From positions 1 through 31,562 of the IMG/VR virus record IMGVR_UViG_3300020042_001096: DNA of 31,562 nt, one strand, 5' to 3'. Every line of letters begins with the position of its first letter. Position 1 is the first letter of the stretch. The position numbers and the translations under genes were made by a program. The DNA is from a virus. Taxonomy: Duplodnaviria; Caudoviricetes. Below are positions 1,902 to 19,391 of this stretch, in pieces. The notes under the pieces are model-generated. The model was not told the DNA's origin, did not search any database, and was given only the letters and a program-made list of their open reading frames with translations.

Positions 1902-1930
1902 ATTATTTTTAAAATATTTGCTTATTTTTG

Positions 1931-1958
1931 TTGACGCAGCCATTTATCTCTGTAGAAT
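1931..1958 (+). promoter_or_regulatory. Sigma70-like promoter for the rightward recombination operon
   Basis: TTGACG (1931-1936), 16 bp spacer, TAGAAT (1953-1958); AT-rich UP-like region upstream. Confidence 0.7.
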
Positions 1959-1965
1959 CGGGGTT

Positions 1966-1981
1966 GTTGAGATATCTCAAC
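1966..1981. promoter_or_regulatory. 16-bp perfect palindrome GTTGAGATATCTCAAC (operator or recombination site candidate)
   Basis: Self-complementary; lies just downstream of the predicted transcription start and upstream of the AGGAG SD at 1998-2002. Confidence 0.6.
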
Positions 1982-2007
1982 CAATCTACCGACCAACAGG
2001 AGATCAC

Positions 2008-2652
2008 ATGAAATACGTTGCTTACTTCCGAGTTTCTACCGAACAGCAAGGCCGTTCAGGTCTTGGTCTTGAATCCCAAAAGCAGTTAGTTTCGTCCTAC
2101 AACGACAGCATCATTGCTGAGTTCACCGAAGTCGAATCAGGCAAGGTGGATAACCGTCCACAGCTGGAAGCAGCTCTTGAGCTCTGCCGCAAAACCAATG
2201 CATCTATTCTTATCGCCAAGATCGACCGTCTCTCGCGTGATGCAGCTTTCCTGCTGACACTGCGTAAGTCTGGCGTTGATATTGTTGCAGCCGATATGCC
2301 ATCTGCTGGCACCCTGGAATTTGGTGTGCGTGCAGTGGTTGCACAGTTCGAGCGCGAGCAGATCTCCAGCCGTACCAAATCAGCCCTGGCAGCCGCTAAA
2401 GCTCGCGGTGTAGTGTTGGGCTCACCAACTCCAGAGATCGGCTCAGCAGCCGGCGTAGCAGCTCTGAAAGCCTCCGCAGATACCTTTGCACAGTCTCTAG
2501 CACCAATCCTGCGTGATCTCAAAGCAGCTGGTTACAGCAGCTTGCGTGCCATTGCAGCTGCATTGACTGAGCGCAAGATCGAAACTCCTCGCGGCAACTA
2601 CGCCTGGTCTGCCAGCCAGGTATCTAACTTGATGAAAAGGATCCCAGCATGA
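2008..2652 (+). CDS. Small serine recombinase (resolvase/invertase catalytic domain plus short recombinase-type HTH)
   Basis: YVAYFRVS (catalytic Ser10), ESG...RPQL, KIDRLSR, EREQISSRTK; C-terminal SLRAIAAAL...TPRG..W....V. True start is ATG 2008 after AGGAG. Confidence 0.92.
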   Translation: MKYVAYFRVSTEQQGRSGLGLESQKQLVSSYNDSIIAEFTEVESGKVDNRPQLEAALELCRKTNASILIAKIDRLSRDAAFLLTLRKSGVDIVAADMPSAGTLEFGVRAVVAQFEREQISSRTKSALAAAKARGVVLGSPTPEIGSAAGVAALKASADTFAQSLAPILRDLKAAGYSSLRAIAAALTERKIETPRGNYAWSASQVSNLMKRIPA

Positions 2653-2729
2653 GCGATGACTTCTTTACCGGTTGCATGGTGGGCATTTCCATCATGCTTG
2701 CAATAATGTTACTGAAAGGATGGATCTAA
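2649..2729 (+). CDS. 26-aa hydrophobic micro-protein
   Basis: MSDDFFTGCMVGISIMLAIMLLKGWI; ATGA overlap with the recombinase stop and TAATG overlap with the next gene. Confidence 0.6.
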   Translation: MSDDFFTGCMVGISIMLAIMLLKGWI

Positions 2730-3031
2730 TGAGAACAGGACAGCAATTAAAACTAGAGATCCTGGATGATATCGAAGCCAGGCGTTCACAGTTCATCAGC
2801 ATGGCACGCAACCTGGCTAGATCGATTAGCCGGGAACGTGGCCAGGTATCAATCAACGACATTCGGGAGAAGTACCCGCTCCCAGATGATGTACATCCCA
2901 GCGCTTACGGAGCTGTCTTTCGTGGCCAACTGTGGAAGGTAATTGGGTACACAGCAGCAAAGCACCCTGATGCGCATGCTAGGCTCATCAGAATATATAA
3001 ATGGAATGAAGGAGATGAAAATGGTTGGTAA
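2729..3031 (+). CDS. Hypothetical phage protein (100 aa, possibly wHTH-like)
   Basis: Start re-called at the TAATG junction (MRTGQQLKLEIL...); VSINDIR...HPSAYGAVF...HARLIRIY pattern seen in small phage proteins. Confidence 0.7.
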   Translation: MRTGQQLKLEILDDIEARRSQFISMARNLARSISRERGQVSINDIREKYPLPDDVHPSAYGAVFRGQLWKVIGYTAAKHPDAHARLIRIYKWNEGDENGW

Positions 3032-3980
3032 AGTTACCCCCGACAGCATGCTGTCAGCTAGCCGCTTGCCGGCAGTCCTTGGTCTATCCAAGTATCGCAC
3101 CCCTAATGATGAGCTCTTAATAAGTATTGACGCATTGAACGGCAAGCAGCCCAAGGATATATCTAATGAGGCCATGAGCTGGGGCAATACACTAGAGCCT
3201 GTAATCCTGCGCGAGACAGCTGAACGTCTGTTGCTTGTAGATCTTAAACTGGACCACCCTAAAGCATTCTTTCACCCGACACTGCCGCTGTGCTGCAGCC
3301 TGGATGGATTAGCCGATGGTCGTGGCCAGATCATGCGTACAGATCCTGATGCTGGCATCTTTGTAGTTGGCCAGGAATCTATCGAGCTCGATGGGTACGG
3401 AGTGCTGGAGGCTAAGTTAACAAGCGGCACACCTGAAAACATACCAGCCTTGCATCGAGGTCCGATCCAGCTGCAAGCGCAAATGGATATCATGGGATAT
3501 AAGTGGGGAGCTCTGGCCATACTTTATCGCGGCACCCAGCTCAGAATATTTCTATTTGCTCCGCACCAGAATACCTTGGATACCATTAAGAAGATCACCC
3601 TGGACTTCCAAAACAGGCTAGAGATCTGGAGATTTGAAAACAGAATCGATCACTTTCCGGTGGCCAACAGCAAGGACGCAGATACCTTGTGGCCAAACAT
3701 TACCTCAGAACAAGACGTGCTTGAGCTGGATGATGCAGCCGCAGAGTATCTGCGTGCAATTGTTAGCCACAAAAAGAAAATAGAAACTTACCAGGAGGAA
3801 ATTGACAGTTATGAAACAGCCATTAAAGAGTTGCTCAAGGATAGGACTGTAGGTAGAGCCGGTGGTTTTGAAGTGCGGTGGCCTATGCGTAACTACCAGG
3901 CACAACCTGAGAAGGTAACTCCCGCCAAGGATGCGTACAGCAAGCGCATGAGCACAATACAAATTAAGGAATTAACATGA
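3021..3980 (+). CDS. YqaJ-like (lambda-exonuclease family) exonuclease
   Basis: LSASRLPAVLGLSKY, WGNTLEP, CSLDG, LEAK, QLQAQM motifs; AAGGAG SD 6 nt before ATG 3021. Confidence 0.88.
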   Translation: MVGKVTPDSMLSASRLPAVLGLSKYRTPNDELLISIDALNGKQPKDISNEAMSWGNTLEPVILRETAERLLLVDLKLDHPKAFFHPTLPLCCSLDGLADGRGQIMRTDPDAGIFVVGQESIELDGYGVLEAKLTSGTPENIPALHRGPIQLQAQMDIMGYKWGALAILYRGTQLRIFLFAPHQNTLDTIKKITLDFQNRLEIWRFENRIDHFPVANSKDADTLWPNITSEQDVLELDDAAAEYLRAIVSHKKKIETYQEEIDSYETAIKELLKDRTVGRAGGFEVRWPMRNYQAQPEKVTPAKDAYSKRMSTIQIKELT

Positions 3981-4702
3981 GCAAATATGCAGAGCTCCGC
4001 ACCATCGACGTTAGCAAGCTAGTCGAGAAAAAGAATAACCTGACCTATCTATCATGGGCATGGGCAGTAGATCAGTTGCTGCTTAACGATCCTGCAGCTG
4101 TCTGGGAATACCCAGAGCCTAAACTGTGGGGTGAAACAGTGATGATCTTCTGCACTGTTAGCGCTTTTGGTATATCACGCACAGCACAGCTGCCGGTGAT
4201 GGACTACCGCAATCAGCCAATACCCAACCCGAATGCCTTCCAGGTTAACACTGCTATGCAGCGCTGCCTGGCTAAAGCAATCGCACTGCATGGAATTGGC
4301 TTGTACATCTATAACGGTGAGGATCTACCACCATCAGATCCACAGGCAGTCAGCAACCCGCTAGATGCACTGCCGGCAGCACCAGTAGAAACAGTGGAGC
4401 CGGTGGTATTGGTGGAGCACACAGATGAGTCCTGGCACCTAATGGTGCCTACCAAAAAGGATCCGTACAGCACCTGGCCAACACCGCTTGAATGGATCGT
4501 AGCTTTTGATGACCTGCAAAACGTAACAGTTAAGGCCACCAAGCGCAAAGCATCTGAGCGCATGAAGATACTGCGTGAGCTCAAAGAAAGTAATGCAGCC
4601 ACACTTGATCGCATGGGTGAGTTTTTGCGATTGCCACTGCTAGCCAGGTATCAGCAGAGATTAACTGATCTGGCACCGGAAGCTATTAAGCATGGCCAGT
4701 AG
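3977..4702 (+). CDS. Sak3/DUF1071-like single-strand annealing protein
   Basis: EKKNNLTYLSWAWA, LPVMDYRN, VNTAMQRCLAKAIALHGIGLYIY.GEDLP. Confidence 0.88.
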   Translation: MSKYAELRTIDVSKLVEKKNNLTYLSWAWAVDQLLLNDPAAVWEYPEPKLWGETVMIFCTVSAFGISRTAQLPVMDYRNQPIPNPNAFQVNTAMQRCLAKAIALHGIGLYIYNGEDLPPSDPQAVSNPLDALPAAPVETVEPVVLVEHTDESWHLMVPTKKDPYSTWPTPLEWIVAFDDLQNVTVKATKRKASERMKILRELKESNAATLDRMGEFLRLPLLARYQQRLTDLAPEAIKHGQ

Positions 4703-7590: not shown

Positions 7591-7959
7591 TCATTCTGTA
7601 GTAACTTCTACCCAAGAAGTTGTAATTTCATCCCAAAAATACCTTCCATTTATAGGTTTTTGAATGGGCGGTTGCCAAACAAAATTTGCATCTAATGACC
7701 AACTAGAAAATGGTTTAGGTGGAATAAAAGCATCAATGTCTGAACGATATGTAAACCCTATACCAGCATAATTTCCTCGATAAGGAGTGCCGCCATTATT
7801 ATGAACATTACCTATAGTGTTATAACTTGTGCGTTTACAAACTTGTCCGCGAAAATCACCGTACCATTGTTCCCAATCTATACCATCTTCACCCTCGTTT
7901 TTCCCAACGATGACTTCAGTAACAATATTGTTTTCATCGAGAAATGCGTAGTGCGCCAT
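7591..7959 (-). CDS. Conserved tail-fibre-associated hypothetical protein (possible chaperone)
   Basis: MAHYAFLDENNIV...KRTSYNT...RGNYAGIG.TY...DAFIPPKPF.SW pattern, a family I recall sitting next to Gly-rich fibre genes. Confidence 0.7.
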   Translation of the reverse strand: MAHYAFLDENNIVTEVIVGKNEGEDGIDWEQWYGDFRGQVCKRTSYNTIGNVHNNGGTPYRGNYAGIGFTYRSDIDAFIPPKPFSSWSLDANFVWQPPIQKPINGRYFWDEITTSWVEVTTE

Positions 7960-8567
7960 TATTCTTCCCCTAAATTTAATCCAGTAAGGCTTTCATCCGA
8001 ACCTATGTATCCTTTAACAAACGTATTAAATGCAATGCTAATACGTGTTGCGTCATCTTCTTTTGTCTGAACCATGTGCATTAAATGCGAAGGAAACAAT
8101 ATCAAATCCCCAGCACCAACTTCAAACCACCATGAATCAGAGTTATAAAAATTGTATTCAGAGGCAGGAAATTTAATGCGTTCGTAACCATCTTTATAAA
8201 AATAAATTTTATCTACAGAACTATCAGCTTGTGGATAAAAAACACCAGACACTATGCTATTTGGATGTGCATGTTTATGATGGTATTGTCCTTTTTCTGT
8301 GTAATTAGCCCAACTTTGAGTTATGTACAAACTTACATCATATTTTGGTGCATGAATATTTTTAAAATATTCAATCATAGAATCTTCAATAAATCCACGT
8401 AGCTCTGTTAGTTCTTTGTTTTTTAAAATTTTTCTGTCTTTGCTAGTAATATTTCCTTCATTTGGATAGCGTTCTTGATATTTAATAAATTCCATTTCAA
8501 GTTCAGTCAAATCACGACCAAATTTAAAAAACGCTACAGGAGTTGGAAATAAATTATTTATTTTCAC
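7959..8567 (-). CDS. 2OG-Fe(II) oxygenase-like protein (TIGR02466-type)
   Basis: SWAN, HxHPNS.VSGVFY, GDLILFPSHLMH.V, RISIAFN motifs; GTG start. Confidence 0.85.
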   Translation of the reverse strand: MKINNLFPTPVAFFKFGRDLTELEMEFIKYQERYPNEGNITSKDRKILKNKELTELRGFIEDSMIEYFKNIHAPKYDVSLYITQSWANYTEKGQYHHKHAHPNSIVSGVFYPQADSSVDKIYFYKDGYERIKFPASEYNFYNSDSWWFEVGAGDLILFPSHLMHMVQTKEDDATRISIAFNTFVKGYIGSDESLTGLNLGEE

Positions 8568-12018: not shown

Positions 12019-14934
12019 TTAATCTGGTTTATAGTAAATGCCATAAGACTGCCTTGCCTCGCCAATACTCATAATTTTATCTTCAATTTCAGGATATTCA
12101 ACAAGCAATTTCTTTTTTGAAAAGCTCATGAATTGGCTGTGGATCTTCTGCACTAACTTCTGCTTTTGATCCAATGGCAGCCGGTCAAAACCAGGCATAT
12201 TCATAGTGTCAAGAATGGCCTGTTTGGCTGGTGTTTCCTTGCCATAGATTGACAGCAATCTATTGTATTGCTCAGTTGATAACTCAATGGGAGACGAAAT
12301 AGAGTTGTCCCCTGATCCAATAGTGAATGACGTTTTCCTATCCGGCACCCCAATTGGTGATCCAATCCCAACCAATAAATCATCCACCTCAGAAAACTGA
12401 TCAGGTGATACCTTGGTGGGTAGCACCAGCTCAAGCGGATTACCCTGGCTGCGCTTCATCGTATCGCCCCACAGGTTTAATGATTCCGGCACCGACTCGC
12501 TAAAGTATGGCAGCCGGCTGCGGTACTGGTTAAACGCCTCAACAAAGCCACGCACGCCCATAGGCAAATCAGGATTAGCCTTGGTATCCTTCTTATTAGG
12601 ATCCAGCAAACGATCTATTGCAGCTACTGATGAGCTGTACGCACCAGCTGGAGATCCACCAATTAAGAAGCTACCAAACTGTTTGGTTAATCCGTTAACA
12701 ATCTTTTCACCATCTACTCGGCCAGACTCATTAAATCCGATTAGCTTGCCAACATCAGCAATGCCCTGCAAATAAGGCTGCTCTTTTAGGTACTCATACA
12801 GGCCATAGGTTGCACCAAGGAACACCTCTTCAACCTTGGTAGCATCTGGCTCATGTTTGGCATACTCAGCATAGTCAGCAGCAATGGCCATCAGAGCGCC
12901 AATCGGCTCCATACCCTGGAAGCTATACCATTTATCACCCAGCTTCATACTGTAAGGCTGCCAGCCTGTACGCATCAATGCTTCACGCTCTTCTTTGCGC
13001 TCTGGGCCTCGGCCACTAAGATTACCTTCTGCTGCCCAAAAAGCAAAGCCGGTTAATACAGTAGATCCTAACGATACCTTGGCAATTGCCATATCTCGCT
13101 GTGGTCCACCGGCTGCAATATCCTGCCGCCATCTAGATGACAGTGGTGCAAACGGTGTGCGCTCAATAACATTCAGACCAATGTTTGCCGGTGTTTTAAA
13201 AAATGGCACAATAATCTTGCCAACCGGGTGATTAAATACTCGCTGCAATTGAGCCAGGGCTGGCGGCAGATCTGCTTGGAAGGTGCCTTGCTTGGCAAAC
13301 TCCATGGCCGCCTCATCCAAATCTCGCGGTGGATTGGCCAGCAAATCCTCTGCTTCTTTTGTTGCGCGATCAATTGCATCTTGCTCACTTAAACCACCAT
13401 CAAGAGATTCTCGATAAACCTTCTTTGATCTGCGCGTTACCTGCGTATTCAGCTCCATGCGGTAAAGCACGCCCTTAAAGAATTCATCTTCCGTCATTAG
13501 CGCACGACCAGGCAAAGTGATTGCGGTGCCGTAGTAATCCATGCCTTTGCCAATCCAACTATCTGGATTAGCGCCTGTCATACGCTGCAATGATTCACCC
13601 ATGCTTTCCATAGGCTGTCGGCTAAGCTCAACCTTGCTGGCAATATCCATCTGTGGAGTATTGGATTTCCACGCCTTGGAAGCCATCTCAAAACCTTCTG
13701 CAATTCCATTGCGCAGAGATAGCGCCATTGTTAGCGCCTCATCTAACTCAACGCGCTCTGCCTCGCTGCCTGGTACTCGATCACCAAACCAGCGCAACCC
13801 AGGCGGGAGCTCACCAGCTCTTAACTTCTGCGGTAGGAAATTGGAATATAAGCCGGCAACCAATCGCTCTGGTATCTGATACAAACCAAACAACGAATTG
13901 GACATAATGTTTTTCGCATGCGTCACAGGAGAAGATAACAGGCCATTGATCCAGGTTGTCATCCAAACATCCTTGATGCCTGACATCATTGATTTCTCAA
14001 CCATGGAGTTTTTGGCTGCGCGTGTCTCAAGCGACAGATAAGATCTGGCCATATCCGTTAGCGCATTCTCTCCACCAAACTCATCTAATACTTGTTTCAG
14101 TGCCTGAGATTTACCATCGCGTGGGATCCGCATCACAGCCAGAGCTCGAGCTGTTTCTGTCTGGATTCCTTTAACGCCTTTTTGCACTAAGCCATGGAAA
14201 GCAATTTGCTGACGCAACGCAAGTTTATCAACGTCAGTGGCCAGGCCAGAATCAACCAACTTGAATAAGCGATCAAGCTCTGTTGCGCTTGACTCCAATA
14301 CCTGCAGAGCTTTGTAGGTATCCACAGCGCTAGGCAGCATGCCGCCATCAGGAGTAACTAAGCGTGCAAGGAATGATTCACTGATACCGCTGGCTTCCGC
14401 TTTCTTCTTAATCTCATCAAATGTCACGCGCTTGGTTTTGATACCAAGAGCATCAGACACGCCACCAATTACGGCAGCTGCATCATCTGTCTGGTAGCGC
14501 GATAGATTGAATGGCTCGACAGGCACACCGGCTGCACGCTCAGCTGTGGTTGGTGCTGGTTTACCCTTAGTTTTACCTGCCGCTGTACGCGCTTCTGTGG
14601 CCTGTTTAACTTTATCAACTAGTTGTTGATCTGCTTCAGGTATTAAAACAGTGCGGCCAACCTTGCCAGGTTCTGGCAATTGACCTGCGGGTGTTTCACC
14701 AGGCACAAGTCTGCGCCCAGCACTTGGCTTTATCTCGGTAACTGCTTTGCGCAGAATTGAACTAAGGCCGGCAACCTGCATGCCATCCATATTGGGAGAG
14801 CCAGGCTCACCAGATAAAGTATCTACTGATTCGGCAGGAGCTTCAATTGGTAATGGCTCAAGCTGCACTTCTTCGGCAGCTGGTGCAGCTTGCTCTGGCA
14901 GAATAGATGTTAGACGCTGCTCAAGTGTGGCCAT
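12019..14934 (-). CDS. Large internal virion (ejection) protein, gp16-like position
   Basis: 971 aa, helical; NGLLSSP.TH, PFFKTP.NI, GWQPYS motifs; last core gene before the tail fibre. Confidence 0.75.
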   Translation of the reverse strand: MATLEQRLTSILPEQAAPAAEEVQLEPLPIEAPAESVDTLSGEPGSPNMDGMQVAGLSSILRKAVTEIKPSAGRRLVPGETPAGQLPEPGKVGRTVLIPEADQQLVDKVKQATEARTAAGKTKGKPAPTTAERAAGVPVEPFNLSRYQTDDAAAVIGGVSDALGIKTKRVTFDEIKKKAEASGISESFLARLVTPDGGMLPSAVDTYKALQVLESSATELDRLFKLVDSGLATDVDKLALRQQIAFHGLVQKGVKGIQTETARALAVMRIPRDGKSQALKQVLDEFGGENALTDMARSYLSLETRAAKNSMVEKSMMSGIKDVWMTTWINGLLSSPVTHAKNIMSNSLFGLYQIPERLVAGLYSNFLPQKLRAGELPPGLRWFGDRVPGSEAERVELDEALTMALSLRNGIAEGFEMASKAWKSNTPQMDIASKVELSRQPMESMGESLQRMTGANPDSWIGKGMDYYGTAITLPGRALMTEDEFFKGVLYRMELNTQVTRRSKKVYRESLDGGLSEQDAIDRATKEAEDLLANPPRDLDEAAMEFAKQGTFQADLPPALAQLQRVFNHPVGKIIVPFFKTPANIGLNVIERTPFAPLSSRWRQDIAAGGPQRDMAIAKVSLGSTVLTGFAFWAAEGNLSGRGPERKEEREALMRTGWQPYSMKLGDKWYSFQGMEPIGALMAIAADYAEYAKHEPDATKVEEVFLGATYGLYEYLKEQPYLQGIADVGKLIGFNESGRVDGEKIVNGLTKQFGSFLIGGSPAGAYSSSVAAIDRLLDPNKKDTKANPDLPMGVRGFVEAFNQYRSRLPYFSESVPESLNLWGDTMKRSQGNPLELVLPTKVSPDQFSEVDDLLVGIGSPIGVPDRKTSFTIGSGDNSISSPIELSTEQYNRLLSIYGKETPAKQAILDTMNMPGFDRLPLDQKQKLVQKIHSQFMSFSKKKLLVEYPEIEDKIMSIGEARQSYGIYYKPD

Positions 14935-16958
14935 TATTTAGCTCCTGATGTGGGAGCCTGACCGCCCCCAATTACATTTGTTGTTGGGTTATTTGGCGTA
15001 GTTTGTCCGATGCCGACTGTATTCCCTGCTCCTGCAGTGCCTGTCTGTTCTGTTGTAACTTGACGCGCATTGCGGAGGTTTCTAGCTCCAGCAAGTTCGG
15101 AATCTGTGAAGGGGATTCCTCTGGCATTGAGTAAGTTTTTTGCTCCATCTGAAAAGCTCTCCGATCTAGCTGATTTAACACCCAAAGTATAATATAGGCT
15201 CTGTTCGTAATACCATAAAACAGCCTGGTTTGCTTGCTCATCTAACTTAACATTAGACGCAATAGCTCTATTCCATTGCTTCATTATATTACGCTCAGAC
15301 TCATTGCGTGGAGCGTCAACCAATCCTTGCTCACTTACTGGCCCTTCAGTTAGTGTTCCAGCGTGACGGTTGTAAGTTCTGGTAAACCACTTGTCTGCAG
15401 TTGTTTCTTTGATACCATTTAGATTTAAAAAGAAAGGGCCTCCTTTTTCGCCCATAATAAATGCGCCCATCTTCATATCATTTGCTTTGCCTGATATGCC
15501 GGGAGTTTTATAAAGACCAGATGCAGCACGCATATTTGTAATTTCTTTTACTGTGTGAGGAGTTAATAACCATTCAGCATAATTATCCATTCCACCCATT
15601 GCTTTAATCATGTACTCATGCAATTTTAATTGCTGCTCCATGATTGGACCAGTAGTGCCACCCCACAATTTTCCATTGTCAGGATTGCGTGATGCAACCT
15701 TTCCTGTTTTCATTAAGTGTTCAGTAATACGCAGAGCCACTGGCCAATTTTCACCGGCTCGTTTGTTGTAACTTGTTGACGCAGAAAATGCTGTAGTTAT
15801 TACCCTTAATGGTTCATCAGTTGCAAGCTCTGGGATAATCTTTGATCCAAGCATAAATGCCTGATGTACGTCATCTTCATACCAAGTCGCACCGCTAATC
15901 GGCTGAGACATTTGATATTGAGATTCTGCTGTTGCAGAGTCAACCATTTTCACTAAATCTTTTGGCTTAGTTGGATCAAGTGGTTTGTTTTTATTTAATA
16001 CAAGTTGCGATTTTTCTAATACAGTGCCAACATCATTTACAGTAATGGTTCCTTTTTCACCAGTGCCTTGAATCTTAACTTTAGCCAAACGTAACGCAAC
16101 AGATGGAGCTCGTTCAGCTTGAGGTAAATAAATATTTACATCTGGATTAGAAGAAACAGAATCAATTGCTTTTGTAAACTCAGTCTTTGGATTAAATTTA
16201 CTTGGAAGAATAAGCGGCTCTTCTGTGGTTTTTGATTTACCTGGTGGGGCAATATCCATCAAGCCACCTGTTTTACGCATATAACCTTCAATCATCTCGC
16301 CAGCAATTGGCGCTAATGCCTCGCCTACAGCTTTACCACCTTTTGCTGCAAGCGCCACACCAGGAACAGCATCTAACGATTGCAATACGCCTTCACCATA
16401 CTTCAGCGCAGCAGTTCCGTATTCACCGCTTGCTGCAGCCTCCATGGCCTCACCACCTGATATACCAGCTTCCTGTGTTGCCAGTGGAATTACAAAAGGA
16501 GTCATGTCTATTAAGCCAATGCCAAACGGTATGCCAGAGCTTTCGCCACCAAACATTGTTTCAGATAATTTGCGTGCGCGTGCATTGTCCATGCCTGTAT
16601 TATCAATAAGCATTTGCTGCATGCCGCTAACCATATTTTGACGCATCGTCCTATCTTTTGGAATAACGGCACCACTAATACCAGCTTTTTGATCTTCCGC
16701 AATTCTGCGTATGATCATTTGCGATTGCGTTTCCAATGGCATGCTACGCATTAGATCGGCTGCTTGCTCTGGAGTTGTCGGTGCTTTTGCCCTACCAACA
16801 TTAGCAGGAGCATCAGTTCTAGTACCAGGACCCGCAGCAAGTTGCACGCCTTCCAGGCTGAACTCATCCTCCATAGGAGCTGGCTCAACAGGCATAGCAG
16901 GGAAATAGCCCTCTACTATTGTGTCAATGTACCGCTGTTCAATCGGGCTGTATGCCAT
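14934..16958 (-). CDS. Putative internal virion protein with a C-terminal HhH-GPD glycosylase-like domain
   Basis: Position within the ejection-protein block; WY...STS...N...GEK...F.LNL...T.D.W..R...QAVLW motif series. Confidence 0.65.
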   Translation of the reverse strand: MAYSPIEQRYIDTIVEGYFPAMPVEPAPMEDEFSLEGVQLAAGPGTRTDAPANVGRAKAPTTPEQAADLMRSMPLETQSQMIIRRIAEDQKAGISGAVIPKDRTMRQNMVSGMQQMLIDNTGMDNARARKLSETMFGGESSGIPFGIGLIDMTPFVIPLATQEAGISGGEAMEAAASGEYGTAALKYGEGVLQSLDAVPGVALAAKGGKAVGEALAPIAGEMIEGYMRKTGGLMDIAPPGKSKTTEEPLILPSKFNPKTEFTKAIDSVSSNPDVNIYLPQAERAPSVALRLAKVKIQGTGEKGTITVNDVGTVLEKSQLVLNKNKPLDPTKPKDLVKMVDSATAESQYQMSQPISGATWYEDDVHQAFMLGSKIIPELATDEPLRVITTAFSASTSYNKRAGENWPVALRITEHLMKTGKVASRNPDNGKLWGGTTGPIMEQQLKLHEYMIKAMGGMDNYAEWLLTPHTVKEITNMRAASGLYKTPGISGKANDMKMGAFIMGEKGGPFFLNLNGIKETTADKWFTRTYNRHAGTLTEGPVSEQGLVDAPRNESERNIMKQWNRAIASNVKLDEQANQAVLWYYEQSLYYTLGVKSARSESFSDGAKNLLNARGIPFTDSELAGARNLRNARQVTTEQTGTAGAGNTVGIGQTTPNNPTTNVIGGGQAPTSGAK

Positions 16959-16959
16959 G

Positions 16960-18750
16960 CTAGATTCCCTCTGATACTTTTAACAAGCGCTCAATCTCTT
17001 GGATTTGGCGTAGTTTCTTTGGATCGCCTTTGGCCTTTTCTCTTAGCGCTGGCAGTGTTTGCTTGTTAACTGGTCCAGTAATCCAATCACGATCTGGCTT
17101 TACTTTGCCAGCTCTATCTACCGTAAAATTATCCAGTGATTCTTTTGCTTGCTTTGCTTCTGTTGAATTTCTTTTATCAAGAATTTCTTTTTCCATCTTG
17201 TCAATGATTTGTCTTTCGGTCAATACCTTACCTTCGTTGGCTGCTTCAGACTCAATCTCAGCAACCCTAACTTTTAATTGTTGCTTGCGTTTCCACTCTT
17301 CGCTTTTCTGATCGATCACAACTATAGCGCCAGGCTCCGATGCAATACCTGCCAATTTATTTAGGCCGGCATCCAATGCTCGTAATCCATCTTTGTTTTC
17401 TGTACGCAGTGATTTTAATAACCCAAGTCTTTGCCTTGGATTCAATCCAGGTATTTTGTCCAACTGTTCTTTGGTTGTGATCCTGCCATCAAATATCATT
17501 CCTAATGCATTATATTCAGCAACAGGATTACCATCACCTTCTTTCTCTGGCTCAAGAAGATCTTTTATTGTGCCAATTGGAATTGAACCAGGTGGCAAAG
17601 CCATAAGCTCATCAATATATGCAATACGTTTTGAATTCTTTACATCTTTAATTGCATATATTTTTTCAAGCAAATTAATTGCAGCTGCTTCTCCATTGCG
17701 TTTGTCTTGATCTCGTTTGCGATTACTAAGCTCTTCTCTCTGATTAACTGCAAGCATATAGTTTGCGGTAACTTTAGCAACAGAATCATAATCATTAGAA
17801 ATCATGTTCTTTAGCACGCCGCTTAAATTTCCAATATCACCAGTGCGGATTTTTGACAGCGTTGTCATTGGATCTGCCATGTAATCATCAGACATTAAAT
17901 GTCTTGTAACAACATTTATTTTTGCGTTATTAAATTCTTTTTTGTAATCGTTAATATATTTGTTTGCCAACTCAGGTCCAATTCCTTCAGTCAACACAGT
18001 TTGCTGCAATGTTTTTAAACCAGCTTCATAAGTAGAATCTAAAATTTGCGGGTTGTTTGCAATGTTTACTTCCATTAATTTTATTTGCGAATTAAAGTCA
18101 GTAATAAATTTCTGCTCACGCACGCGCTTATTAAACTTAGACTCTGCCTCTAAAGCAGATTTGTAAACTGCATTGCCATGCGTAGCCATAGTCGCATTAA
18201 AGCGGATAGCTGCTTCTGGATCTACTTGCGCAAGAACTTCAGAGCTTGCTTTAGTAAATGTATTTATTTTTTCAAGTACGTTTTTAGATGATGCAGATGA
18301 ATTACCTTGCTCAATGTCGCTTACTATTTTTATAAGTTCTGCGTTACCTTCTTGCTGAAACAGATTTGCCAGTTGCGCACTTCTAGCTTTTTTTACTGCC
18401 TCATTAAATTTGCTAGGCAACATGCTTAATGCGCTTTTTTCTACTTTGCCTTTTTTAATGGATATGCCGCCGCCAAGCTCTACATCTAATAAGCCACCAT
18501 GAGAATCAAATAACTGATCTTGAGTAATCTCATTCTCTGCTGCGTATTTGAGCCCTTCTTCAATGCGCATCTTGCCGGCATACTCAAATAACCCAGCACT
18601 CATGCGGTCAAGCATTTGACCCATTACCTGATTAGATTCTGCTTGAGCTCTGCCAGCAACATACTGCACAGGCCGAGGCTCGATCTGACGCATAGGCACG
18701 CTGCCTGGTTGACGTAGTTGTATATTTCCTGTGTCTAATCTAGTAGCCAT
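16960..18750 (-). CDS. Internal virion protein (gp15-like position)
   Basis: 596 aa, charged and helical; assigned by synteny after the gp14-like gene. Confidence 0.65.
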   Translation of the reverse strand: MATRLDTGNIQLRQPGSVPMRQIEPRPVQYVAGRAQAESNQVMGQMLDRMSAGLFEYAGKMRIEEGLKYAAENEITQDQLFDSHGGLLDVELGGGISIKKGKVEKSALSMLPSKFNEAVKKARSAQLANLFQQEGNAELIKIVSDIEQGNSSASSKNVLEKINTFTKASSEVLAQVDPEAAIRFNATMATHGNAVYKSALEAESKFNKRVREQKFITDFNSQIKLMEVNIANNPQILDSTYEAGLKTLQQTVLTEGIGPELANKYINDYKKEFNNAKINVVTRHLMSDDYMADPMTTLSKIRTGDIGNLSGVLKNMISNDYDSVAKVTANYMLAVNQREELSNRKRDQDKRNGEAAAINLLEKIYAIKDVKNSKRIAYIDELMALPPGSIPIGTIKDLLEPEKEGDGNPVAEYNALGMIFDGRITTKEQLDKIPGLNPRQRLGLLKSLRTENKDGLRALDAGLNKLAGIASEPGAIVVIDQKSEEWKRKQQLKVRVAEIESEAANEGKVLTERQIIDKMEKEILDKRNSTEAKQAKESLDNFTVDRAGKVKPDRDWITGPVNKQTLPALREKAKGDPKKLRQIQEIERLLKVSEGI

Positions 18751-18761
18751 TTTTAATTACC

Positions 18762-19391
18762 TTATTTTGGTGGAACAGTCTTAGGAGCTGTTTCGCCATA
18801 AATAGTAGTGCCAAAATTAACAGCAGCTGAACCAAGTGTAAATGCACTCATCAAACCACCTGTACGCCTAGTAGCTGCGGCTGCTTGCTGGTATTGGCCA
18901 GCTTGAGCACTAGCAGCATATTTGTTTAATATGTTCTGGATTTCTGTAGACTCAAGCATTGCACTGGCATCTTCAAATCCTAGTACCCTTGCAGCCAATG
19001 CATTTAAATCAGCAACACCAACATCCATTAATGTTGCTTGCGTATTTTGTTGCTGAATAGCAAGCGCACTGCCGCCACCATAATCAATACCATTAGCAGC
19101 TGCTCTAGCACGAACAGCAGCATTTGACTCGCGCTCTCTGCGCAGCAATGTATTGCCGGCAACCTTCCAATTCATTTCTTCTGTTTTTGCTTTTTGCAGA
19201 ATGCGGCCAGTTTGGATGGCACCATACTCAGCATCAAGATCTGCGCGTACATTAGCAATTTCAAGCGCGTTTCTGGCTTGCAAAAGATAACCAGTCTGCT
19301 GGTTAATAGACTCTGCTAATTTAGCTTGTGAAGCGCCATAGGCAGTTATTAATCCTGCCCCTGCTGTCAACATTGCTGGAGTAATCGCCAT
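18762..19391 (-). CDS. Internal virion protein (gp14-like)
   Basis: Ala/Gln-rich, hydrophobic N-terminus, RARAAANGID.GGGS motif; follows the nozzle gene. Confidence 0.7.
   Translation of the reverse strand: MAITPAMLTAGAGLITAYGASQAKLAESINQQTGYLLQARNALEIANVRADLDAEYGAIQTGRILQKAKTEEMNWKVAGNTLLRRERESNAAVRARAAANGIDYGGGSALAIQQQNTQATLMDVGVADLNALAARVLGFEDASAMLESTEIQNILNKYAASAQAGQYQQAAAATRRTGGLMSAFTLGSAAVNFGTTIYGETAPKTVPPK

Follow-up and report, generated by a model that had tools for sequence, protein, structure and literature searches.

A predicted HhH-GPD glycosylase-like domain as exchangeable cargo of a putative podovirus ejection protein

Gene order and parts of the 674-aa protein

The window analyzed here is virus record IMGVR_UViG_3300020042_001096 (Caudoviricetes) at its full length of 31,562 bases, estimated to be 95% complete, the minus strand of which carries a podovirus virion module in the order terminase, portal, scaffold, capsid, tube A, tube B, four genes of 209, 596, 674 and 971 amino acids (aa), and tail fiber. 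The subject of this study is the third of these four genes, which encodes an N-terminal anchor followed by a swappable cargo (Table 1). As judged from its model and motifs, the cargo domain is very likely an HhH-GPD enzyme, and the function that we favor, if tentatively, is that of an injected glycosylase/apurinic-apyrimidinic (AP) lyase excising oxidized guanine from the phage's own incoming DNA. A sequence-only reading of the same DNA had already placed the gene within a four-gene ejection cluster, in agreement with the gene list, and had proposed an OGG1/EndoIII-like domain in it, a proposal that is modified below; the swappable nature of the cargo and a gene nested in its tail were missed by it.

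Within the cluster only the 971-aa protein carries a library label (internal virion protein), while the 674-aa protein had no match in Pfam or PHROGs and its 99% identical UniProt entry is auto-named LPD-containing. The gene lies between tail tube B and tail fiber and adjoins labeled internal virion genes, as would be expected of an ejection protein, and tube or 971-type neighbors were present at 28 of 46 distant loci carrying the domain. We consider it probable that the 674-aa protein is delivered with the virion. The alternative is a late, non-virion protein whose target is progeny or host DNA, or a domain that merely binds DNA; no library labels the 674-aa protein as a virion protein and seven of the top 150 homologues are shorter than 400 aa (some possibly fragments), but the fixed place between ejection genes, the fusion of the domain into the giant last gene of the ejection cluster in the cultured phages BD1 and DC33 and the invariance of the catalytic-type Lys and Asp speak against it, which makes it very unlikely in our view. 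The anchor is 82% identical to that of the closest sister gene (L093) and about 26-45% identical to those of most other cargo classes, and it is likely the packaging and ejection part of the protein. Its role may be modeled on T7 gp14-16, which are ejected with the DNA; by position and size only, we take the 209-aa and 596-aa genes to be gp14-like and gp15-like.

Table 1. Features of the 674-aa gene and its cluster in the window.
Feature	Coordinates	Strand	Basis
674-aa gene; third member of the four-gene group between tail tube B and tail fiber; putative ejection cluster; anchor and cargo	14934..16958	-	gene list, library scans, locus comparison
N-terminal anchor, residues 1 to about 235	16254..16958	-	common to sister genes with other cargoes
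Predicted HhH-GPD glycosylase-like domain, residues 300-620, DUF7178-related	15099..16061	-	profile search, conservation, model, Foldseek, profile-profile comparison
W359-Y360, nearly invariant N-terminal helix motif	15879..15884	-	conservation
K505 (predicted Schiff-base lysine) to F509 (K+4 aromatic)	15432..15446	-	conservation, profile alignment
D522 (predicted catalytic Asp, directly preceding model helix 523-533) and W524 (at D+2, like His270 of human OGG1)	15387..15395	-	conservation, model
Q578-x3-W582-x2-E585 helix	15204..15227	-	spacing equal to human OGG1 Q315/F319/D322; profile alignment to OGG2 Asp/Trp
Nested +1-frame gene, 58 aa, start inside codons D604-G605	14972..15148	-	frame conservation in relatives
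GGAG ribosome-binding site, 10 nucleotides before the nested start	15159..15162	-	invariant in 25/25 close relatives
971-aa internal virion protein, downstream neighbor	12019..14934	-	phrog_6651, E 1.6e-30
209-aa and 596-aa genes, upstream cluster members	16960..19391	-	gene list, locus comparison

Conservation, predicted fold and motifs of the domain

With a profile of 10 sequences, 1,318 clusters out of 1.84 billion were retrieved at 1e-30 and 2,797 at E ≤ 0.001; the domain family is real, of wide distribution and apparently not yet described. Conservation was counted in the best 150 of the 2,797 clusters (27-90% identity, median 34%), relatives that were ranked by a profile already weighting the scored columns. 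G503, K505, G507, D522, W524, R531 and G534 are present in all 150, Y360, S396, Q578, W582 and E585 in 149 and W359 in 148; K505 is embedded in G-x-K-x-G-x-F, position 509 being Phe in 144 and Tyr in six. On sequence grounds, conservation of these motifs is far beyond chance. The lysine expected of bifunctional HhH-GPD enzymes, the catalytic Asp immediately before a helix and the C-helix pair of 8-oxoguanine (8-oxoG) glycosylases thus have counterparts in K505, D522 and Q578 with W582, respectively, the last aligning with the OGG2 Asp/Trp pair at a weak score. The invariance of K505 and D522 was what the sequence-only reading had asked to see, and the motifs that it had picked out (W359-Y360, IMGEK505, TTAD522KWFTR and Q578AVLW582, with a Lys-Asp spacing of 17) were found where it had put them; across the clade the spacing is 17-18, and W359-Y360 is a candidate pocket wall. 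Its limits for the domain, 15181..15890 or residues 357-593, do fall within the domain, but the true span is wider, about residues 300-620. In 25 sequences variation in the core domain is mostly at the third codon position (0.14, 0.05 and 0.40 for the three positions), and the identity of the domain among close relatives is 76-91% as compared to 28-50% for the 596-aa neighbor, a contrast biased by the choice of loci by domain.

The AlphaFold2 model of the domain, built from 59 sequences, is all-helical with a predicted local distance difference test score (pLDDT) of 96.1 and a predicted template modeling score (pTM) of 0.92. Among the Foldseek matches listed against the PDB, four rows exceeded a probability of 0.4 and all were 8-oxoG glycosylases: 3n0u_C (TmOGG2; 0.89, TMt 0.61), 7ou3_B (Tga-AGOG; 0.87), 7ou3_A (0.72) and 1xqo (Pa-AGOG; 0.44), at E 0.16-0.85 and with a TMt of 0.42 for AGOG. 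The Foldseek comparison proposed by the sequence-only reading therefore turned out in part as foreseen: the solved structures of best probability are glycosylases of this superfamily, but none reached E ≤ 0.001, and OGG1 and EndoIII were not among the matches listed. In the Atlas, DUF7178 clusters scored 0.96 (TM 0.53/0.74) and models of 3-methyladenine glycosylase (TAG) were weaker (TM 0.43/0.57), while a viral structure library gave 15 significant rows, all of them phage proteins and several labeled polyvalent.

Profile-profile comparison with 18 OGG2 proteins aligned the last two helices only, placing Q578 on the OGG2 C-helix Asp and W582 on the Trp, with a score of 24.9 as compared to at most 17.0 in 10 column shuffles and 12.2 in reverse. 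The Lys, Phe and Asp of the L101-type cargo found in sister genes (see below) align with K505, F509 and D522, and the L101-clade Asp in turn aligns with the OGG2 Asp; a PDB profile search with the L101 clade had MjOgg as its top row at E 0.33. The OGG2 family model PF22175 gave no match in the window genome (a control matched 3/14). According to two papers, the C-helix Asp and Trp of OGG2 are equated with Gln315 and Phe319 of human OGG1 (hOGG1) and the K+4 residue is Cys in hOGG1, His in OGG2 and Phe in AGOG (PMC3397491), while hOGG1 Gln315 bonds N1 and N2 of the base and His270 pairs with Asp322 (PMC4207560). The spacing in the window protein matches hOGG1 K249/C253/D268/H270/Q315/F319/D322 as given there, W524/E585 being matched to His270-Asp322 by spacing only. 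The individual lines of fold and motif evidence are weak singly, yet they are in agreement. HhH-GPD membership is thus likely rather than proven, since no match to a solved structure is significant by E-value; of the original OGG1/EndoIII-like assignment, the invariant Lys and Asp and the OGG-type C-helix stand, whereas the nearest known enzymes are OGG2 and AGOG and the hairpin is non-canonical.

The fold might also serve another chemistry, either a PUGT/AADT-like base-modifying transferase that protects the incoming DNA from restriction by marking it, or a nucleotide N-glycosidase which breaks down a signal molecule. The PUGT structures 8z2n and 8z2m do appear further down among the Foldseek rows, at probabilities of 0.20 and 0.18, but they score far below OGG2 and AGOG. 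Besides, AADTs need 5-hydroxymethyluracil DNA, and no gene of a base-modification pathway was recognized in the 95%-complete genome (28 proteins scanned, others by eye). Although polyvalent proteins are described as bearing nucleotide-processing and DNA-protecting enzymes (PMC5512222), we consider such a chemistry improbable.

Most of the family sits inside long polyvalent phage proteins, a connection that the sequence-only reading had drawn correctly: 105 of the top 150 homologues are at least 1,000 aa and 67 at least 2,000 aa long, and long homologues (2,268-3,297 aa) also bear ART-PolyVal, LPD22 or LPD38 (7, 4 and 4 of 12 scanned, respectively). With one recognizable cargo, the window protein itself lacks the two or more disparate enzymatic domains per chain that mark polyvalent proteins and that the long homologues possess. 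In one 2,412-aa protein (P0131) the homologue of the domain is joined to a Mu-type portal (PF06074), which would be another way into the virion. Cultured carriers of homologues are Limnohabitans phage DC33 and Octadecabacter virus BD1, and a 28% identical one was found in an isolate genome of Polynucleobacter (L246, one of 17 genome loci).

The company of ART-PolyVal domains in 7 of the 12 long proteins raises the possibility of counter-defense, in which the enzyme would strip a host-installed adduct or another non-guanine lesion (ADP-ribosylated or alkylated base, ultraviolet photoproduct or abasic site) from the incoming genome. Replication-blocking adducts would presumably select more strongly than 8-oxoG, TAG-like models are among the structural neighbors, and an EndoIII-like pyrimidine-dimer glycosylase exists in Micrococcus. 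Against this, a Gln reading N1 and N2 would leave no space for the N2-linked ADP-ribose of DarT1 chemistry, library scans found no ART domain in the window protein, and the best solved matches are guanine-specific enzymes; we therefore regard counter-defense as quite unlikely.

A swappable cargo slot

Sister genes were taken from the best 80 of 541 loci ranked by tube A (77-100% identical), chosen independently of the domain; 36 of the 80 have a complete third gene, the other 44 being cut by contig ends or by the fetched flank. The cargoes in these 36, near-duplicates included and hence not independent, were of the window type in 3, the L087 type in 12, DUF7178 in 4, the L101 type in 9, the L145 type in 2, the L131 type in 2, GP88 in 2, PBECR5 in 1 and the phrog_3170 type in 1. 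Six glycosylase-like sequence groups, all with Lys-x3-Phe, Asp and a late Trp helix, fill 32 of the 36 slots, a pattern that hints at a single shared requirement. The L087 type is a homologue of the window family (profile-profile probability 96-98%), the DUF7178 cargo matches Pfam at 5e-26, the L145 type is 37-39% identical to the L101 type and the L131 type is glycosylase-like by motif only. For the L101-type model (pLDDT 88), OGG2 structures occupy the top seven Foldseek rows with probability 1.0, TMt up to 0.71 and E 0.004-0.03. Since profile-profile comparison is significant for the L087 group only (0.2-5% for the window family with DUF7178 and the L101 group), kinship of all cargo groups rests on motifs and folds.

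The 674-aa gene is thus an anchor with a swappable cargo. DNA of L093 matches window positions 19391-16353 (86%) and 14946-12281 (92%) with nothing between, so that the swap spans both cargo and nested gene; the flanking proteins are 82-97% identical to those of the window and the difference falls exactly over the cargo. Moreover, L087 has a tube A 100% identical to that of the window and a different cargo, and cargo classes are interleaved in the anchor tree, which has long branches and was used for interleaving only. Because sisters exchange the cargo, the domain is replaceable and probably does not belong to the structure of the ejection channel.

Several slots hold cargoes of other kinds or with additional parts. 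In L093 (10769-12913) the cargo is a phrog_3170 domain, and its C-terminal portion resembles ART on visual inspection. L111 (5408-7339) and L120 carry GP88 (PF17338, E 1e-15) with a C-x5-C-x3-C cluster, which we take to be a radical-SAM-like enzyme and a possible virion cargo, and L109 (9230-11152) carries PBECR5 (PF18814, E 4e-23). In L087 (7565-10369) and L131 (7186-9564) an extra unlabeled domain of ~250 aa, related between the two by eye, follows the glycosylase-like part. There are two types of the 971-type protein, one about 55-85% and the other about 25-30% identical to that of the window (L002-L033, L086-L165), and their distribution is independent of cargo class, which suggests a second exchangeable module.

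A gene nested in the +1 frame

Near its end the 674-aa gene contains a nested gene that ordinary annotation overlooks and that has a ribosome-binding site of its own. The nested frame is free of stops in all of 25 distinct close relatives and its ATG is invariant, whereas the +2 frame has stops in 22. Over codons 626-655 the variation shifts to 0.30, 0.11 and 0.04 for the three codon positions, and identity is 0.81 in the +1 frame versus 0.51 in the host frame. A motif search detected a homologous nested open reading frame (ORF) in 53 of the 63 distinct loci, counting the window, out to clades at 35% identity, and in an alignment of 27 sequences four columns of the protein do not vary. Different nested +1 ORFs of 55-62 aa, each conserved inside its own group, lie near the gene end in DUF7178 and L087 cargo genes (from codon 598 in L092 and from codon 866 in L087), while no convincing nested ORF was seen in the L101, GP88, PBECR5 or phrog_3170 types. 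A longer version of the nested gene, the 89-aa ORF beginning at 15241, was discarded because in many relatives stops interrupt the +1 frame ahead of the D604-G605 ATG, and a +1 frameshift at a T-run is less likely than translation from a start of its own, given that 5 of the 25 relatives break the T-run yet keep GGAG. In L101-type genes, an internal ORF of 184 aa resembles a shadow frame. The 58-aa protein is a candidate cognate inhibitor or chaperone of the cargo enzyme.

A conserved carrier, a variable C-terminal domain and a small downstream gene recall polymorphic toxins, in architecture only. This layout invites the view of an injected weapon, a phage counterpart of the bacterial Dag glycosylases, which would cut 7-deazaguanine DNA of co-infecting phages or marked hosts, with the nested protein as immunity. 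The 7-deaza bases retain the face predicted to be read by Q578, each of three cargo groups has its own +1 gene, and the slot is common to glycosylase-like cargo and PBECR5. Furthermore, Dag1 and Dag2 are HhH-fold enzymes active against 7-deazaguanine phages, some Dags clustering near AGOG (10.1101/2025.10.29.685425), and anchor, variable cargo and small downstream gene resemble MuF toxins (PMC5576092). On the other side, PADLOC matched 0/8 cargo domains (library of 2023, older than Dag), an unmodified phage needs no immunity protein against a modification-specific enzyme, and near-universal presence in the sister group seems high for a rare target; such a weapon, although the chief rival to the reading with oxidized guanine, appears unlikely to us. 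A broader version seems rather unlikely as well: an extensive group of aquatic podoviruses would inject interchangeable glycosylases of several lineages that displaced each other, at least three of them with a nested inhibitor, and these would cut modified guanine of rivals or hosts, mirroring Dag.

Proposed function

For the injected glycosylase, oxidized guanine in the phage's own DNA is favored as the target because the nearest enzymes act in this way and most sisters keep some glycosylase-like cargo; provided that the domain is an enzyme, a guanine-derived substrate is likely. We propose that the anchor would carry the enzyme into the head and then out with the DNA, and that a guanine-derived base, most likely 8-oxoG or of the formamidopyrimidine (Fapy) type, would be flipped out of the incoming phage DNA. 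Q578 is predicted to read the Watson-Crick face of the guanine, W582 and F509 to sandwich the base and W524/E585 to gate the pocket, while D522 would assist cleavage and K505 would form the Schiff base. Host enzymes would then finish the repair. During assembly or in the capsid, the nested 58-aa protein might keep the enzyme off.

Several observations weigh against this proposal. Hosts normally have MutM, and phage-borne repair would thus be redundant; the presence of a PBECR5 nuclease-like domain and GP88 in the same slot fits conflict better than housekeeping repair. At 18 of the 46 distant loci no neighbor resembles the structural genes of the window. As for the fold, neither the window-domain model nor the L101 model matched a solved structure in the PDB at E ≤ 0.001 with Foldseek, and the window-clade list is headed by a designed protein with the OGG2 row 28th (E 0.85). 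Sequence and profile searches of the PDB with the window clade (profiles A1 and A7) matched no glycosylase, profile-profile probabilities to OGG2 are only 4.5% (window clade) and 8.4%, and for the L101 clade versus OGG2 the reversed control scored above the true comparison (23.3 versus 20.7). The canonical hairpin h-x-G-h-G-x-K is represented by its second Gly (G503) only, DSSP assigning a continuous helix 498-513 through K505; the AGOG hairpin also deviates, and such a departure is compatible with the HhH-GPD superfamily. Finally, no residue of the domain could be matched to the N7-H sensor on which specificity for 8-oxoG rests: there is neither an A-domain nor a terminal Lys, and no sensor of the AGOG type (Gln31/Trp69 in AGOG) could be mapped in the W359-Y360 helix. 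Reading of the guanine face is predicted, and 8-oxoG is a candidate substrate.

If the proposal of an injected glycosylase is true, thousands of uncultured phage lineages would bring a DNA glycosylase into the cell as soon as infection begins, DUF7178 and its unlabeled relatives would gain a function and the polyvalent-protein inventory a new domain class. The natural swaps offer matched cargo pairs, DC33, BD1 and the Polynucleobacter genome are cultured or isolate carriers of homologues, and new base specificities could serve as reagents.

Further features of the window

Beyond the virion module, the window holds lysis genes and, on the plus strand at 1918-4702, a serine recombinase, a YqaJ/RecE-like exonuclease and Sak (28 proteins scanned with Pfam and PHROGs). 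With this set and no DNA polymerase or base-modification gene recognized among the scanned proteins or, by eye, the others, the phage is possibly temperate. A 2-oxoglutarate/Fe(II) (2OG-Fe(II)) oxygenase (PF13759, phrog_81; 7959-8567, minus strand) follows the tail-fiber genes.

Comparison with known systems

In the literature searched, which left out most subscription journals, no description of a virion- or ejection-delivered phage glycosylase was found. Injected polyvalent proteins were defined by Iyer et al. (2017; PMC5512222), in whose main text, as far as available, the word glycosylase occurs 0 times, while its supplements could list the domain as an unnamed LPD; the available part of PMC9503650 has no glycosylase mention either. 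No Pfam LPD model matches the window domain. New from this window are a naturally occurring matched swap and the presence of several clades in a single slot. DUF7178, a term not found in the literature searched, has no assigned function. The window domain is, by sequence, a relative and not a member of DUF7178 (PF23802)/phrog_3842: its homologue P0127 matches at E 1e-4 to 2e-6 and true DUF7178 occupies the same slot in 4/36 sisters, but the window domain is longer, fused and without a match above the Pfam gathering cut-off, with 1/10 alignment members matching.

Among characterized enzymes, OGG2 (Tm1821 3N0U, MjOgg 3FHF/3KNT; PF22175) is the best solved fold match, its C-helix Asp/Trp falling on Q578/W582. 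However, the window domain has ~320 aa as compared to 210 aa in OGG2, at 12% identity, with Phe instead of His at K+4 and Gln instead of Asp on the C-helix, and it is without the C-terminal Lys sensor of OGG2 because the chain continues. AGOG (Tga-AGOG 7OU3, Pa-AGOG 1XQO) shares Phe at K+4, the Trp stack and a non-canonical hairpin, whereas its Lys-Asp spacing is 32 instead of 17 and the TM is only 0.39-0.44. In human OGG1, the residues K, K+4, D, D+2, Q, the aromatic at Q+4 and the acidic residue at Q+7 all have counterparts by spacing; the window model, by contrast, is all-helical and has no beta-sheet A-domain, and hence no Gly42 sensor.

At the level of systems, polyvalent proteins (PMC5512222) and MuF toxins (PMC5576092) are likewise virion-module proteins with variable enzymatic cargo that have been proposed to be injected. 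In contrast to MuF toxins, the carrier here is a podovirus ejection-cluster protein and the small partner is nested out of frame. Dag1 and Dag2 (preprint 10.1101/2025.10.29.685425) have the HhH fold and act on modified guanine in a setting of conflict, traits that the window domain may share, and Dag1 behaves as a bifunctional enzyme. The Dag genes, however, are bacterial, integron-borne defense genes, and that preprint merely speculates on virion-packaged countermeasures.
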